Shown one piece after another: positions 35,704 to 41,814 of a DNA stretch of 64,000 bases. The position numbers and the translations under genes were made by a program. Every line of letters begins with the position of its first letter. Position 1 is the stretch's first letter. The notes below the pieces were generated by a model. It worked only from the letters and a program-made list of their open reading frames with translations. It did not search any database and was not told the DNA's origin. This DNA comes from Thermoanaerobaculia bacterium (GTDB lineage: Bacteria > Acidobacteriota > Thermoanaerobaculia > Multivoradales > Multivoraceae), in the NCBI GenBank assembly GCA_965116145.1, contig OZ220482.1, forward strand, positions 2,255,957 to 2,319,956, in the 5' to 3' direction.

Positions 35704-36819
35704 TCAGGTATTGACGAACCGTCGCACGTCCAGGCCGATCATCAGGCCGGTGGCCGCGCAACAGAAGAGCATGAAGGAACCGCCGTAGCTCAGGAAGGGA
35801 AGCGGGATGCCGGTGATCGGCAGCAGGCCGACCACCATCGCCGTATTGTAAAGAACGTGGCCCGCGATGAAGGAGAGCAGGCCGACGACGAGGAGCATGC
35901 CCGACAGCTCCCGCGCCGCCAGGGCGACGCGGACACCGTTCGCCAGGTAGAGAAGGAGCAGCCCCAGGGTCACCGAGACGCCGACGAATCCGTACTCCTC
36001 GCCCAGCACGGCGAAGACGAAGTCCGTGTGAGGCGTCGGCAGGAACTGCAGGTTCGACTGCGTGCCCTCGCCGTAGCCCTTGCCCAGCAACTGGCCCGAC
36101 CCGATCGCGATCCGGCTCTGCCGCACCTGATATCCCGACCCGAGCGGGTCGGCGTGAGGTCGGAAGAAGCTGAAGAGCCGCTCCTTCTGGTAGTCCTGCA
36201 GAGCGAAGATCCAGACGCCGCCCGCAACGACGGCGGCGACCGCGACCGCGACCAGCGCGGAACGGAGCCTGACGCCGACAACGAGGACCACGGCGGCGAG
36301 CATCGGCGCGAACATCAGCGCGCCGCCCATGTCCGGCTGGAGAGCGATCAGCAGCACGGGCAGGGCGACGACCGCCGTGGCTGCCCACAACCAGCCCCGG
36401 GGCGCCACCGGCGCCTGCGCTTCCGCTACGTTACGGGCCAGCAGCAGGACGGTCGCGATCTTGCAGAAGTCCGAAGGCTGACCGCCGAAACCGCCGATCC
36501 CGATCCAGCTCCGGGCCCCTCCCGCTTCGTGTCCGAAGAGGGTGACCGCCGCCAACGCCGCCAACGCCGCCAGGTAGATCCAGAGAGCGTGTCGGAGCAG
36601 GAACGTGTAGTCGACCGCAGCAGCGGCCGCCATGACCAGCACGCCCAGCCCGATCCACGCGGTCTGGCGCGCCACGTAGTCGGTGGTGAGTTCTGCCGAA
36701 GCGCTGGAGATGACGACCAGTCCGATCGCCGACAACGCCAATGCCGATCCGGCAAGCAGCCAGGAAACGGACCGGACCCGACGCACGAAGGGCCACGGGT
36801 CAGCTCTTGCCGCGAGCAC
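35704..36819 (-). CDS. rodA: Rod shape-determining SEDS glycosyltransferase RodA
   Basis: GARSW, QPSDFCK, QPDMG, GYQVRQS, HTDFVF, GIPLPFLSYGGS. Confidence 0.95.
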   Translation of the reverse strand: MLAARADPWPFVRRVRSVSWLLAGSALALSAIGLVVISSASAELTTDYVARQTAWIGLGVLVMAAAAAVDYTFLLRHALWIYLAALAALAAVTLFGHEAGGARSWIGIGGFGGQPSDFCKIATVLLLARNVAEAQAPVAPRGWLWAATAVVALPVLLIALQPDMGGALMFAPMLAAVVLVVGVRLRSALVAVAVAAVVAGGVWIFALQDYQKERLFSFFRPHADPLGSGYQVRQSRIAIGSGQLLGKGYGEGTQSNLQFLPTPHTDFVFAVLGEEYGFVGVSVTLGLLLLYLANGVRVALAARELSGMLLVVGLLSFIAGHVLYNTAMVVGLLPITGIPLPFLSYGGSFMLFCCAATGLMIGLDVRRFVNT

Positions 36820-38590
36820 CGAAATGACCCTCGTGCATCGCTCTTGCCAGCGGCGCCGCCGCTTCGGAGCCCCGACCGCCGTTCTCGATGAACACTACGA
36901 CGACCAGCTCCGGCGCCTCGACCGGAGCCCAGGACGTGAACCAGGCGTGGTCGGCCTGGTCGGGCGGAAGATCCTCGGAGCGGGTCCAGGTCGCCTGCGC
37001 AACAACCTGGGCCGTGCCCGTCTTGCCCGCAACGGCGACGATCGGCGTGCTGGCGCTCCGGCCGGTGCCGTTCTGCACGACGTTGGCCAAGGCCTCCGCG
37101 ACGAAGGGGACGACGTCGGCATCCAGGCCGAGCGGTTCCGGCGGTTTTCCGCCGCCAGCAATCAGGTAGGGGCGCACCCGGAACCCGCCATTCGCCACCG
37201 CCGCGGTCATCACCGCGACCTGCAGCGGCGACGTCAGCAGCGGACCCTGGCCGATCGCGACCGAGACCGTATCGCCCGGGTACCACGGAACGCCGCGCCG
37301 GTGTCGGCTCCATTCGGGATCCGGCACCAGACCCTGACTGTCGCCAGGAAGTTCGACGCCCGTCCGCTCGCCCAGACCGAGCAGCCGGGCGTACGCGGCG
37401 ATCTTTTCGATTCCGATCCGGAGACCCTGCCGGTAGAAGTAGATATCGCAGGAATGCTGCAGCGCTCCACGCAGGTCGGTCCAACCGTGCCCGCGGCGCT
37501 GCCAGCAACGCCACCGTCGGCCGTGGAGCCGCGTTGCGCCTCCGCAGAACACCCTCTCGTCCGGGTCGAGCACGCCGCTCGCCAGACCTGCTATCGCGAC
37601 CGCGATCTTGAACACGGAACCCGGAGGGTAGGTGTTCTGGATCGCACGGTTCTGAAGCGGTTTGCGCGGCGCGTCGACGATCCGGCTCCACTCCTCGTGG
37701 CTGAGACCGCCGGCGAAGCTGTTCGGATCGAAGGAAGGAGAAGAAGCCATCGCCCGAATCGCGCCGTCCCCGGGATCGAGCGCCACGATCGCGCCCGTCC
37801 TGTCGCCCAGCAGGCTGTCGGCCAACTGCTGGAGGCGCAGATCGATGGTGAGGGTGACGGATTCCCCGGGCGCGGCATCGGTCCGCCGCACATCCGCGTC
37901 CTGCATCAGCCGGCCGCGGCTGTCGACCACCACGGTCCGTTCTCCGGGGGCGCCGCGCAGGACCCGCTCGCGCAGCAACTCCACGCCGCTGCGGCCGATG
38001 AGGTCGCCGGCTGCCAGCGAGGGGTCACGGTCGTTCTCGGCGGGAGTGGGCGCGCCGAGGTAACCCACAAGGTGGGCGGTCTGGCGGCTGTGCCGGTAGA
38101 GACGCCGCCTGGACGTCGAGATCTCGAATTCCGGGTGCTCGGGCAGCGATACCTCGAACCGTGCGACCTGGTTCAGTTCCAGGTCCTCGGCGAGGAGGAC
38201 GGGGACGTCGCGGGCCACTCCCGGGTAGCGAGCCAGGGCGGCGCGGAGGTCCCGCTCGTCCCGGCCGAGGATCTCGGCCGCGAACGCCAGGCTGGCGGAC
38301 AGATCCGAACTCTCGCTGCGGTCGATCATCAGGCGGAACGTGGGCGCGTTCTCCACCAGGATCCGCCCGGCGCGGTCGAGGATCCTGCCCCTGGGCGCAT
38401 CGAGCCGCAGCACCCGCAGCCGGTTGTTCTCGGCCAGCCGCTCGTAGTGCTCCGCCCGAACGACCTGGTGGTACCAGCAGGCGATCCACACCGCCGCCAG
38501 GCCCACGCCCAGGACGACGCATAGCCACTTGAGCCGGACCGCCGCGTCCAGAAGCTGGTCCGACCCTTGGTCACGGCCTGGCAGGCTCAT
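36800..38590 (-). CDS. mrdA: Penicillin-binding protein 2
   Basis: APRGRILDR, PGSVFK (SxxK), SCD, KTGTAQ, HAWF. Confidence 0.95.
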   Translation of the reverse strand: MSLPGRDQGSDQLLDAAVRLKWLCVVLGVGLAAVWIACWYHQVVRAEHYERLAENNRLRVLRLDAPRGRILDRAGRILVENAPTFRLMIDRSESSDLSASLAFAAEILGRDERDLRAALARYPGVARDVPVLLAEDLELNQVARFEVSLPEHPEFEISTSRRRLYRHSRQTAHLVGYLGAPTPAENDRDPSLAAGDLIGRSGVELLRERVLRGAPGERTVVVDSRGRLMQDADVRRTDAAPGESVTLTIDLRLQQLADSLLGDRTGAIVALDPGDGAIRAMASSPSFDPNSFAGGLSHEEWSRIVDAPRKPLQNRAIQNTYPPGSVFKIAVAIAGLASGVLDPDERVFCGGATRLHGRRWRCWQRRGHGWTDLRGALQHSCDIYFYRQGLRIGIEKIAAYARLLGLGERTGVELPGDSQGLVPDPEWSRHRRGVPWYPGDTVSVAIGQGPLLTSPLQVAVMTAAVANGGFRVRPYLIAGGGKPPEPLGLDADVVPFVAEALANVVQNGTGRSASTPIVAVAGKTGTAQVVAQATWTRSEDLPPDQADHAWFTSWAPVEAPELVVVVFIENGGRGSEAAAPLARAMHEGHFGARGKS

Positions 38591-38606
38591 CGTGCAACCG
38601 TCACGG

Positions 38607-39149
38607 TCAACGCTGGCGGCCCCTTCCGCCAGTCCGTGCAAGCCGCACCGCAGCCCGGACCCGGAGCCGGCCGACCAACCACAACGCCGGCACGCCGACC
38701 GCGGTCGTTGCCGCCACCCGCAGCGGCACGGCAGCGCCGCCGCCGGGCTCGACGCCCGCCAGCAACGCCAGCAGACCGAGCACGATCGCCTGATGGACCA
38801 GCACGCCGACCGCGACCAGAAGAGAAACCGTCACGTGCTGGCTGGTGACGATGCGCTGCGACAGTCGGGCCATGGCGTAGCCGACGACGCAGCAGGCGAG
38901 GGCGTGCAGACCGACCGGCGACATGCTCAGTGTGTCCTGAACGAACCCGGCCACCAGGCCGCCCGCCATGCCATGAAGCGAGTTGCCGGCCAGTCCGTTC
39001 AGGACGACCAGCAGCACGAACAGATCGACAGCTTGACCGGCGGCTGGCAGCGCCTCGGCCAGGAACAACTCGACCAGCGACACCGCAGCCAGACCGACCG
39101 CGAACCTGCCGGCCCACGCCAGGAGCCGCGCTGCATTCGTTTCAGCCAT
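38607..39149 (-). CDS. mreD: Rod shape-determining protein MreD
   Basis: Hydrophobic; GLVAGFVQD...PVGLHAL; lies between mreC and mrdA. Confidence 0.85.
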   Translation of the reverse strand: MAETNAARLLAWAGRFAVGLAAVSLVELFLAEALPAAGQAVDLFVLLVVLNGLAGNSLHGMAGGLVAGFVQDTLSMSPVGLHALACCVVGYAMARLSQRIVTSQHVTVSLLVAVGVLVHQAIVLGLLALLAGVEPGGGAAVPLRVAATTAVGVPALWLVGRLRVRAAVRLARTGGRGRQR

Positions 39150-39267
39150 GCATTCTGCCCGGCAGCGTTGCTATTCGGTCGAACATCACCGATGCGCTCA
39201 CCCATGGCGTCCTGCCGGACGGGCGCCCGACCGCTCTCGGTGCGACACGCACCTCTGCCACGGGCTG
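39128..39267 (-). mobile_element. MITE-like family A copy between mreC and mreD, overlapping the mreD start
   Basis: Begins at CTAG 39268-39271 (mreC stop); left TIR CAGCCCGTGGCAGAGGT; 26 bp identical to 41726-41751. Confidence 0.85.
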
Positions 39268-40107
39268 CTAGCGGCCCAAGGCATCCGCGCCGTCCATGAC
39301 CGCCTCGGGCACCACATCGCGGCGCCAGACAAAGGCATGGCTGAGCGAACTGAAGTCCACGCTCGGGGTGACCTCGATCTCGTGGAAGAGGTCGCCGCCG
39401 GAGTCCACGGAGGTGATCGTCCCGATCGGGACACCGCGCGGAAAGACACCGTCGATGCCGGCGGTCACCACCCGGTCTCCCGGCCGGACCTCCGCCATGA
39501 GCGGCACGTACGCGAGCGACAGGACACCGGGCTCGCTGGCGCCGCGGACGATGCCCTGGCGACGGCTGCGCTCGATCATCGCGCCGACCGAGGAATCGCG
39601 GTCCGTGACCAGGAGAACGCGGGCGTACGTGCCGCCGTCGGCAATGATCCGTCCCAGCACGCCGTCGACCGTGGTTACGGGACGCCGCAGCCAGTCGCCG
39701 CTGGCGCGCGCCCGAGGCAACCGGAGAATGGCGGTGCGCCGCCAGGAGCGGTGGTCGACGTAGACGACATCCGTCAGCATGAGATCGGCGTCCGGCGGCC
39801 GCTCGTATCCCAGGGGCGACGACAGCAGGTCGACCTCGAGTTCCGCGCCGAGGGCAGCCGTGTGAGCCGCCTCGAGCTCGCGCAGCCGGTCCCGAAGCTG
39901 CTCGTTCTCGCGTTGCAGTCGAGCTCTGGTGCGCCGTCCCTCGCGGAGCGCCTCGATGCCGTCGGCCGCCCCGCCGACGAGCCGCTTGACCGATGCTTCC
40001 ACCCACAATCCAGGATGGCCCGCCCGCTCCGGTGACTGAGCGGTCAGCAGCGCAAGCAGAACAGCCACCGCGGCGACGAACAGGACGGCGACCCGACGCT
40101 CGTTCAT
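39268..40107 (-). CDS. mreC: Rod shape-determining protein MreC
   Basis: N-terminal TM, LQRENEQLR coiled coil, GDRVVTAGIDGVFPRGVPIG. Confidence 0.92.
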   Translation of the reverse strand: MNERRVAVLFVAAVAVLLALLTAQSPERAGHPGLWVEASVKRLVGGAADGIEALREGRRTRARLQRENEQLRDRLRELEAAHTAALGAELEVDLLSSPLGYERPPDADLMLTDVVYVDHRSWRRTAILRLPRARASGDWLRRPVTTVDGVLGRIIADGGTYARVLLVTDRDSSVGAMIERSRRQGIVRGASEPGVLSLAYVPLMAEVRPGDRVVTAGIDGVFPRGVPIGTITSVDSGGDLFHEIEVTPSVDFSSLSHAFVWRRDVVPEAVMDGADALGR

Positions 40108-40127: not shown

Positions 40128-40250
40128 GAGCTTGCGCCGTGGCAGGCGGCGCAGCGAACTCGCGCTTCGCCGGAAGGAGAGTGCCCGACCGCTCTCGGTG
40201 CGACACGCACTGCCAGGAGCTTGCGCCGCAGAACGCAGCGCAGCAAGTTC
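40128..40250. repeat. Two 34-bp REP-like direct repeats (40128-40161, 40217-40250) bracketing a family A fragment (40183-40210)
   Basis: GAGCTTGCGCCG-N-GCGCAGC(G/A)A..TC occurs twice, each self-complementary; GCCCGACCGCTCTCGGTGCGACACGCAC lies between them. Confidence 0.6.
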
Positions 40251-40266
40251 TCCGGTGCAAGGTCTA

Positions 40267-40323
40267 TGGTGAGGTGGGGGCTGGGGCCAAACACTGAGTC
40301 AGCGACGGGCTTGGCGGCTCTAG
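40267..40323 (-). repeat. Repeat family B immediately after the mreB stop
   Basis: 52/57 identical to 61630-61685; both end in GGCTCTAG containing the TAG stop. Confidence 0.85.
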
Positions 40324-41336
40324 TGAATCGACACCCTGCGCAGCAGCCCCATGTCGGGCAGCACGCGGCCGGCGCCCAGAACGACCGAGGCCAGCGGATC
40401 CTCCGCGGCGAAGACCGGCAGCCCGGTCTCCTCGCGCAGGCGTTGATCGAGAGAGTTGAGCAATGCGCCGCCGCCCGAGAGGACGACTCCCTTGTCCATC
40501 ACATCGGCCGAGAGTTCCGGCGGCATCCGTTCAAGGGCCTGAAGCACGGACTCCACGATCATGGCGACCGGCTCCTCGAGTGCGCCCCGGATCTCGGCGT
40601 CCGAGATCCTGAGGCTGCGAGGCACACCGCGCACGAGATCCCGCCCCTTGATGTCCATGCTCAGGGCCTTCTCGAGCGGAAAGGCGGAGCCGATCTCGAG
40701 CTTGATGTTCTCCGCCGTGCGCTCGCCGACCAGCATGTTGTGCTTGCGCTTCAGGTACTGGGCGATCGCTTCGTCCATCGCGTTGCCGGCCACCCGCAGC
40801 GAGCGGCTGTAGACGGTCCCGGACAGCGAGATGACGGCGATATCGGTGGTGCCGCCGCCCATGTCCACGATCATGTTGCCCGTCGGCTCGGTGATCGGCA
40901 GACCGGCGCCGATGGCTGCCATCATCGCCTGCTCGACCAGGAAGACCTCGGAGGCGCCCGCGCTCAGGGCGGACTCCCTGACCGCGCGCTTCTCCACCGG
41001 CGTGATCTCGGAGGGCACGCCGATCACGATTCGCGGACGCACCAGACGGCGGCCGTGATGAGCCCGGCGGATGAAGTACTTCAGCATCTGCTCGGTCATT
41101 TCGAAGTCGGCGATCACGCCGTCCTTCATCGGGCGCACCAGTTCCAGGATTCCGGGCGTGCGCCCGAGCATCTCCTTGGCCTCCGCCCCGACCGCCTCGA
41201 TGCGGTTGCTCTGCCTGTTCACGACGACCACCGACGGCTCGCGCACGACGATGCCGTTCGCCCGGGTGAAGACGAGAGTGTTGGCCGTCCCCAGGTCGAT
41301 CGCGAGATCGCTGGAGAACCACTGCAGGAAACGCAT
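40320..41336 (-). CDS. mreB: Rod shape-determining protein MreB
   Basis: DLAIDLGTANT, RPMKDGVIADF, VDMGGGTTDIA, SGGGALL. Confidence 0.98.
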   Translation of the reverse strand: MRFLQWFSSDLAIDLGTANTLVFTRANGIVVREPSVVVVNRQSNRIEAVGAEAKEMLGRTPGILELVRPMKDGVIADFEMTEQMLKYFIRRAHHGRRLVRPRIVIGVPSEITPVEKRAVRESALSAGASEVFLVEQAMMAAIGAGLPITEPTGNMIVDMGGGTTDIAVISLSGTVYSRSLRVAGNAMDEAIAQYLKRKHNMLVGERTAENIKLEIGSAFPLEKALSMDIKGRDLVRGVPRSLRISDAEIRGALEEPVAMIVESVLQALERMPPELSADVMDKGVVLSGGGALLNSLDQRLREETGLPVFAAEDPLASVVLGAGRVLPDMGLLRRVSIH

Positions 41337-41611
41337 TCGGGATGAACCTCGGGCCAACAGCCAGCAGGGTTCACCTCATGAAGCGTAGAACGGCCTCGGA
41401 ACTCGCCGCATCTCCTGCGCCGGGAACGCAATGCTCCCCGAGACAGGCGCAAGGACACGCCCCGCCAAGCGGCGAGAAGATACCACAGAAAGGGCCGCGT
41501 CCTGCCGCCAAACGGCTGAGCCCAGGACAGTTCACGGTCGACCCGAGACGCCGCCGCGAGAGGAGCCCCCGAACCGGCGCCCGAGCGCCGGCTCCCGTCC
41601 CGTCCTGCTGG

Positions 41612-41769
41612 CAGTCCGTGGCTGAAGTGCGTGTCGCAACGAGAGCGGTCAGGCGCCCGTCCGGCAAGGCGCTACAGGTACGCATACTGGGCATATGTGA
41701 CCGAAGAGCAACGCAGCCGGACGGGATGCATGGCTGAAACGAATGCAGCGCTACTTCTGCCACGGACTG
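41612..41769 (+). mobile_element. MITE-like family A, full-length reference copy (158 bp)
   Basis: TIRs CAGTCCGTGGCTGAAGT / ACTTCTGCCACGGACTG flanked by CTGG / CTAG; internal perfect 10-bp inverted repeat CCCGTCCGGC / GCCGGACGGG; no transposase ORF. Confidence 0.85.
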
Positions 41770-41814
41770 CTAGCATGAAGTCTGTTTGCGCCCCGTGGGC
41801 GCCGGAACCGAATC

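Follow-up and report, generated by a model that had tools for sequence, protein, structure and literature searches.

How does a conserved cell-shape gene keep a translational start when a mobile repeat has settled on the junction with the gene before it? The mreC–mreD junction raises this question in a stretch of 64,000 nucleotides (nt) from the genome of a Thermoanaerobaculia bacterium (GenBank assembly GCA_965116145.1, contig OZ220482.1, positions 2,255,957 to 2,319,956 of the forward strand), here called the window, in whose own numbering all positions are given. The genome is a single contig of 3,728,387 bases (3.73 Mb). A copy of a transposable element of the miniature inverted-repeat type (MITE) lies between the end of mreC and the conserved part of mreD. 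A preliminary description of the window, made from its letters alone, had proposed that this repeat provides the start codon and first residues of MreD, following an insertion plus a deletion that removed the native start. After comparison with the other genomes of the genus and with public metagenomes, we conclude that the element inserted into the TA within the stop codon of mreC, and consider it likely that mreD is now headed by an ATG inside the MITE.

A complete MITE copy at the mreC–mreD junction

The gene mreC occupies 39268–40104 on the minus strand (278 codons, ATG at 40104), matches the Pfam MreC profile with E = 4.7e-33 and ends, read on its own strand, in ...GAT GCC TTG GGC CGC TAG, the stop codon lying at 39270–39268. 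The repeat copy begins at the CTAG at 39271–39268 that contains this stop, as the preliminary description had read. After mreC comes the mreD open reading frame (ORF) at 38607–39149 on the minus strand, 180 codons plus stop, which belongs to the MreD family according to both the genus alignment and Pfam (PF04093; 34.5 bits against a cut-off of 24). The order on the minus strand is the CTAG of mreC (39271), the MITE, an ATG at 39149 within it, GCAGCGC, the last 22 nt of the element (39127–39106) and then GTTCGCGGTC... of mreD. The 21-mer ATGGCTGAAACGAATGCAGCG at 39149–39129 (minus strand) is identical to 41730–41750 (plus strand) in a free copy of the element and reads MAETNAA in frame with the MreD ORF, both as described before. 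It is present 19 times in the genome.

Alignment to the family and subfamily consensus sequences, together with the empty site of a relative described below, delimits the copy to 39106–39271 (minus strand). Its left terminal inverted repeat spans 39248–39271, with the first four bases, CTAG, containing the native mreC stop. At the other end, 39106–39127 holds a degenerate right terminal repeat, which encodes MreD residues 8–14 and contributes two bases, the first and second, to the codon of Arg15. The preliminary description had regarded this right repeat as lost. The copy is, however, exactly 166 nt long, which is the modal length of the family, and its last 22 nt are colinear with the consensus right end, matching at 13 of 22 positions without a gap. 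An equally good match was found in only 0.16% of 200,000 random genomic 22-mers.

The divergence of the copy is distributed unevenly. Relative to a consensus built from the 17 copies with ATGGCTGAAACGAATGCAGCG, it shows 4 mismatches in the first 60 nt, 16 and one gap in the middle 60 columns, none in the 26 nt around the ATG and 9 in the last 22 nt. The probability of at least 9 mismatches in 22 positions is 0.003 at a background of 15% and 0.02 at 20%. This suggests that the right repeat changed much faster than the left arm after insertion; what caused the divergence we infer rather than observe. With a predicted folding energy of −73.3 kcal/mol, the junction copy forms a weaker hairpin than 117 of the 123 full-length copies in the genome.

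The native junction and an empty site in relatives

The genus comprises 41 further genomes, each of which has an mreD orthologue, and we read the mreC–mreD junction in every one. In 39 of these 41, the mreD ATG lies 17 nt before the mreC stop in an uninterrupted ATG-N14-TAG-GTTCG arrangement, for example ...GGCGCGG ATG CCG TGG GCC GCT AGG TTC GCC..., in which the TAG stopping mreC is read in the other frame. The corresponding MreD proteins begin with MPWAARFA, MASAGRFA or similar; none begins with MAETNAA, in agreement with what the preliminary description expected of repeat-free relatives. The window retains the same 17 nt, ATGCCTTGGGCCGCTAG (39284–39268), directly 5' of the MITE, and GTTCGCGG directly 3' of it. 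Hence, the mreC stop is native and the native mreD ATG (39282–39284, minus strand), identical in position and context to that of the 39 relatives, is still present and cut off from its gene. This ATG now heads a vestigial frame of 28 codons (39198–39284, minus strand; worked out by hand), which reads MPWAA followed by MITE-encoded residues and ends at a TGA at 39200–39198. Translation begun at the native ATG would therefore not pass through the element in frame. The earlier proposal of an insertion plus deletion that removed this start does not hold, as the ATG is intact and the change is a plain gain of 162 nt at a TA.

Further evidence came from contigs of three public sequencing runs of one study, which were compared with 38800–39600. 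The filled form occurs in contigs of two runs, covering 38800–39266 and 39239–39600 with 0 differences; these two runs may be the source samples and are not counted as independent support. In the third run (X3), a close relative is represented by a contig of 11,225 nt, in which 39105 is immediately followed by 39268; the 162 nt between them are missing, and 2 bases at the joint are ambiguous. It differs from the window at 29 of 306 nt on the mreD side (38800–39105) and at 17 of 333 nt on the mreC side (39268–39600), in a comparison that hides differences less than 30 nt from the piece ends, leaves 5 and 3 differences unplaced and does not display the letters beside the joint. The relative is thus about 5–9% diverged from the window. 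This join is an empty site, and the whole of 39106–39267 is inserted DNA, the degenerate right end with it. It follows that the gain consists of the element plus a 2-base duplication, with no deletion of native sequence. An MreD protein search returned no relative above 71% identity, and the N-terminus encoded on the X3 contig was not readable as protein. We also scanned metagenomes for other filled junctions with a loose gapped pattern, which gave at least 119 stretches; none of the 80 examined by blastn matched the junction.

Translational start of mreD

From the MITE-internal ATG (39147–39149, minus strand), MreD would begin with MAETNAARLLAWAG, 14 residues encoded by the element, and continue with the native RFAVGL..., the Arg15 codon being composed of the last AG of the element and a native G. 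In an alignment of 16 sequences, Arg15, Phe16 and Ala17 are conserved at 90% or above, and Leu20 and Val23 are invariant. As conservation of the N-terminus extends to Arg15, translation must begin before codon 15, and upstream of this codon the MITE ATG is the sole canonical start in frame. The element thus carries a start codon in frame with mreD, listed as such in the ORF list, and the peptide MAETNAARLLPRTA of the subfamily is read from the same ATG in 10 copies. Based on these sequence comparisons, the MITE ATG is probably the working start of mreD. In this respect, and in that the cell may depend on this ATG, the preliminary description is probably right; the contribution of the element, which it put at seven residues, amounts to 14. 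The exact 180-amino-acid product is on record, indicating that gene callers chose the MITE ATG as well, which is a prediction and not evidence.

Several observations speak against this assignment. No Shine-Dalgarno-like motif precedes the MITE ATG, and none of GGAG, GAGG and AGGA occurs within 20 nt upstream of it. A CTG stands exactly at the position of the relatives' ATG. At the right end, the final 17 nt match the native junction at 13 of 17 positions and the nearest family variants likewise at 13 of 17, and on account of this tie substitution within the element is indistinguishable from a short conversion patch derived from the upstream native sequence. The computed openness of the start region, at 0.44 the highest of all copies compared with 0.14 ± 0.06 in 98 copies, lends the MITE ATG weak support and is a weak sign of selection: across the copies openness generally increases with divergence (r = −0.69), and values of up to 0.37 are seen in other old ones. 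We also considered whether translation of the vestigial frame opens the hairpin; holding 39284–39198 single-stranded raised the openness from 0.35 to 0.45, which gave no real support, and this idea was rejected. An AlphaFold2 model of MreD built from a 16-row alignment had a mean predicted local distance difference test score of 54, a quality at which neither the position of helix 1 nor the N-terminal extension could be judged.

The most serious competitor is a start at the CTG of codon 10 (39120–39122, minus strand), or at another near-cognate codon, with the MITE ATG incidental. This CTG aligns with the native methionine in 14 of 15 relatives (alignment A1), and a CTG is found at the same place in the filled junction of a second genome, G013, although the consensus of its own family has TCG there. 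In the window, by contrast, CTG is the consensus of the MITE family at that position and so needs no selection to account for it, and 27 nt upstream, where the sequence is less structured, there is an in-frame ATG whose frame is open. CTG is, in addition, a very weak initiator in the bacteria in which it has been tested, which counts against its use. Taken together, we regard this alternative as unlikely. Initiation further downstream is less likely again. The GTG of codon 23 (39081–39083, minus strand), which the preliminary description had placed inside the first transmembrane helix and which is indeed the next canonical in-frame start, within the first hydrophobic stretch, and the TTG of codon 28 (39068) are both canonical and in frame, and since no Shine-Dalgarno-like motif was found before any candidate mreD start, they are no worse placed than the ATG; the native start of the relatives also lacks a good one. 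A protein beginning at either codon would be devoid of the first half of helix 1, whereas codons 15–22 keep the genus-wide pattern of conservation. The residue encoded by GTG23 is valine in 16 of 16 sequences, an invariant internal residue in relatives that clearly start upstream. Furthermore, position 29 of the Pfam MreD profile pairs with residue 36 of the 180-amino-acid product, projecting the domain to about residue 8. We therefore hold such a start to be improbable.

Two other readings concern the locus as a whole. That mreD is dispensable or not made, its ORF being a decaying remnant, might be suspected because the gene is uncoupled from its native start with no clear ribosome-binding site in its place; but the 180-codon frame is intact and carries the 38 invariant columns common to the 15 relatives, its Pfam score exceeds the cut-off, the mre row is intact, and a second lineage, G013, likewise keeps an intact mreD behind an insert. 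This makes decay very improbable. The loss of the right terminal repeat in a deletion that also took the native mreD start draws on the appearance of the right end, which is consensus-like at 13 of 22 positions only and so seems absent to the eye. We give it the least credence of all, as it is refuted by the native ATG at 39284–39282 and by the full family length of the copy; moreover, the X3 contig lacks exactly 39106–39267, so that the 22 nt are part of the insert and no native sequence has gone, and codons 8–10 (RLL) agree with the subfamily peptide MAETNAARLLPRTA.

Proposed history of the junction

The anatomy of the copy, the empty site and the stranded ATG are shown by the comparisons above, and with the MITE ATG as the likely start they give the following history. 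In the genus, the mreC TAG sits 17 nt inside mreD, the two genes overlapping as ATG..N14..TAG. A non-autonomous, TA-targeting hairpin MITE of 166 nt entered the TA of this TAG. The mreC gene remained unaffected, because duplication of the target restored its stop, while mreD was severed after codon 5 and its own ATG left with mreC, at the head of the 28-codon dead-end frame. The frame of the ATG in the right arm of the MITE runs open through the right terminal repeat into mreD, and MreD would now be made as the element-encoded N-terminus joined to native sequence.

Read in the mreD frame, the terminal repeat gives LPR(T/A)A-R, compared with M-PWAA-R at the native start, and the native junction agrees with the element end at 9 of 13 positions, which is unusual among CTAG flanks. 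The insertion was probably tolerated because the terminal repeat encodes a near copy of the residues that were lost. A general preference of the element for end-like targets was rejected on comparing the flanks of the 123 full-length copies with other CTAG flanks (Mann-Whitney p = 0.61).

The MITE family in the genome and the genus

The free copy (41608–41773, plus strand), which carries ATGGCTGAAACGAATGCAGCG, lies upstream of mreB and beside ppiD. Used as query against the 3.73-Mb genome at E ≤ 1e-5, it gave 216 blastn hits, 123 full length and 93 partial. This is far beyond chance, bearing out the repeat status assigned in the preliminary description. The consensus of 166 nt runs from CTAGCAGTCCGTGGCAG... 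through ...CTGCCACGGACTGCTAG, and 49 of the 123 full-length copies have this modal length. Its termini are inverted repeats of each other, and the consensus folds into a hairpin spanning the full length of the element at −103 kcal/mol, compared with a mean of −95.3 kcal/mol and a standard deviation of 10.9 over the 123 copies. The element inserts at a TA within CTAG or GTAG, and its shortness, with no gene for a transposase, its many dispersed copies and the existence of empty and filled sites with a target-site duplication are those of a bacterial MITE. Matches to the family were found in 30 of the 42 genomes of the genus. A search of Rfam gave 0 matches for the MITE, and a search for promoter-like sites gave 0. 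A look for a parent insertion sequence, in which end pairs 400–6000 nt apart were collected and the intervals left untranslated, gave only separate MITE copies.

In the alignment of the 123 copies, the end variants are mirror-symmetric, with CTAG or CTGG on the left and CTAG or CCAG on the right. The combinations of ends are what would be expected if the pairs at the base of the hairpin passed from A-U by way of G-U to G-C, which suggests that the fold itself is under selection or subject to biased repair. CTAG is scarce, with 581 sites in the genome, a large share of which are MITE ends.

The right arm contains a motif, ATGCATGG (for example at 41726–41733), with two ATGs 4 nt apart. Length variants of this arm leave 43 or 44 nt to the element end, and each puts an ATG in a frame that stays open across the terminal repeat. 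In 34 of the 96 full copies carrying ATGCATGG, the distance from the second ATG to the end is 44 nt, the phase needed at mreD; the frame is open in 27 of these 34, and MAETNAARLLPRTA is the commonest peptide. Some in-frame ATG for such a site exists in 86 of the 123 copies. Elsewhere in the genome, 32 of 107 ORFs headed by a MITE ATG reach at least 200 codons, though a GC-rich genome such as this one has many long frames that are spurious.

Insertions at the same site in other lineages

In G013, about 300 nt are inserted at the same TA, consisting of a version of the MITE from that genome's own family plus other repeated DNA. The right end reads GATTTCTGCCGCGGGCCGCCAG followed by GTTCGCGG, and here too the mreD frame runs across the right repeat (…HAERFLPRAARFAV…). 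Further up, the insert has an in-frame ATG, and the annotated product has 192 amino acids (P0018). An ancestral insertion shared by G013 and the genome of the window (G000) was considered and rejected: a tree from 910 columns of MreC, MreD and PBP2 does not group them as sisters, and the empty site is found in a genome far closer to G000. At 17 diagnostic columns, the copy in G000 carries the state of its own genome's family 9 times, that of the other genome 5 times and neither 3 times; for the G013 copy the counts are 11, 4 and 2. Given the tree, the empty site and the leaning of each copy towards its own family, we read the two insertions as independent.

The 300 nt before mreD in G013 (L015, G013:C19) comprise about 100 nt of other repeats, the MITE and, inside it, a 72-nt insertion with the in-frame ATG. 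The flanking sequence GTTCCATGC recurs beside four MITE copies of G013, a hint that the MITE may be paired with a second element.

Shorter traces occur in other lineages. In G003 (L208), 9 extra bases, GGCTGCCAG, lie between the mreC TAG and GTTC and add RAA in frame; they are identical to the final 9 bases of a right-end variant that is common in the MITE family, and the proteins P0034 and P0039 also carry RAA. This looks like the remnant of an old insertion common to at least two related lineages. The protein P0013 (177 amino acids) begins with MPWAA-SSLPRPA-RFAAS, probably an in-frame remnant of 21 nt from the left and right tips of the MITE, as judged from the protein with the DNA unseen.

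It may be speculated that the TA shared by the mreC stop and the mreD start region is a recurrent, tolerated landing pad for the MITE in at least four lineages: G000 with a full element, G013 with the composite insert, G003 and two further proteins with the 9-nt remnant, and P0013 with the probable 21-nt one. The site would be tolerated because the terminal repeat mimics the native MreD N-terminus and because either of the two ATGs, 4 nt apart, gives an open frame into the gene; the family would act as a portable start-codon cassette, with the right repeat driven to diverge. We consider this extended scenario doubtful. The scarcity of free CTAG or TA targets may explain repeated insertions at one site.

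Neighbouring genes of the mre row

According to the ORF list and the translations, the mreB-mreC-mreD-mrdA-rodA row is intact on the minus strand. The ORF at 40320–41357 is taken by us to be mreB because of its gene order and the MreB sequence pattern in its translation. Downstream of mreD, the listed ORF at 36800–38641 is presumably mrdA (PBP2), given the gene order and its sequence, and rodA is listed at 35704–36819; all three lie on the minus strand. As listed from its first TTG, the mrdA ORF overlaps the 3' end of mreD by 35 nt (38607–38641).

The spacer between mreB and mreC (40160–40323, minus strand) consists of repeated DNA throughout. It holds a member of a second repeat family, about 110 nt long with roughly 50–80 other matches in the genome, which adjoins a 52-nt fragment of the 166-nt MITE family. 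Both junctions of mreB-mreC-mreD thus hold repeats.

Discussion

Hairpin MITEs of similar build are familiar from other bacteria. The Correia elements or NEMIS of Neisseria and the ERIC sequences are about 100–170 nt long, target TA, occur in hundreds of dispersed copies and are co-transcribed with their neighbours; the effects for which they are chiefly noted are those of promoters, processing sites and terminators. In contrast, the junction MITE alters the coding start of a conserved gene, and it has no sequence relation to them and no Rfam match.

Closer parallels concern repeats joined to genes. Fusions of repeats to the 5' or 3' ends of genes, including REP2 and MIRU, are covered in the review by Delihas 2011 (PMC3184786). 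As described there, MIRUs (Supply et al. 1997, per PMC3184786) are 40–100 bp long and often tandem. They resemble our case as small repeats between operon genes that carry an open frame and whose ends overlap the stop and start of the neighbours (PMC3184786). Unlike these, the junction element is a single hairpin of 166 nt over its whole length, with terminal inverted repeats and a TA target, and leaves the native start stranded. The Neisseria REP2 repeats share with it a repeat-borne translational start fused to a chromosomal frame; they differ in having no terminal inverted repeats and in containing sequence resembling a 5' untranslated region with a ribosome-binding site, which was not seen in the junction MITE (PMC3184786). 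The palindromic elements of Rickettsia (Ogata et al. 2000, cited in PMC3184786) are likewise palindromic mobile repeats translated within conserved proteins, but as summarised there they are read through in frame from the protein's own start, whereas the native mreD frame stops inside the MITE, so that the gene requires another start. Start codons supplied by BOX elements (boxC) are described by Croucher et al. 2011 (PMC3049150), according to whom BOX, RUP and SPRITE repeats extend or form the 5' ends of ORFs, here too without a good Shine-Dalgarno sequence. The frames described there encode hypothetical proteins of no known family, while the present case involves a conserved cell-shape gene, an empty site and several independent insertions. 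Among the papers listed by our literature searches, none dealt with a MITE at mreC/mreD, and the name 'Candidatus Multivorans' returned none.

Measured against these systems, the re-heading of mreD by a MITE is a clear and well-documented but ordinary kind of event, and it leaves the general understanding of MreD or of MITEs unchanged. What is most interesting about it is that the junction has been used recurrently and that the right repeat, once captured, has changed fast. If the landing-pad scenario were true, a MITE family could replace translationally coupled starts in compact operons, and divergence of the right repeat after capture would tune the new N-terminus and lock the element in place.

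For annotation, the locus illustrates that gene callers silently accept repeat-borne starts, the products of 180 and 192 amino acids being on record, and that a stranded native ATG or in-frame remnants are missed unless junctions are compared. For the biology of the organism, it offers a natural example, complete with an empty site, of a selfish hairpin repeat that splits the overlapping stop and start of a cell-shape operon with both genes surviving, the sequence of the element probably supplying the replacement start codon and 14 N-terminal residues of MreD.

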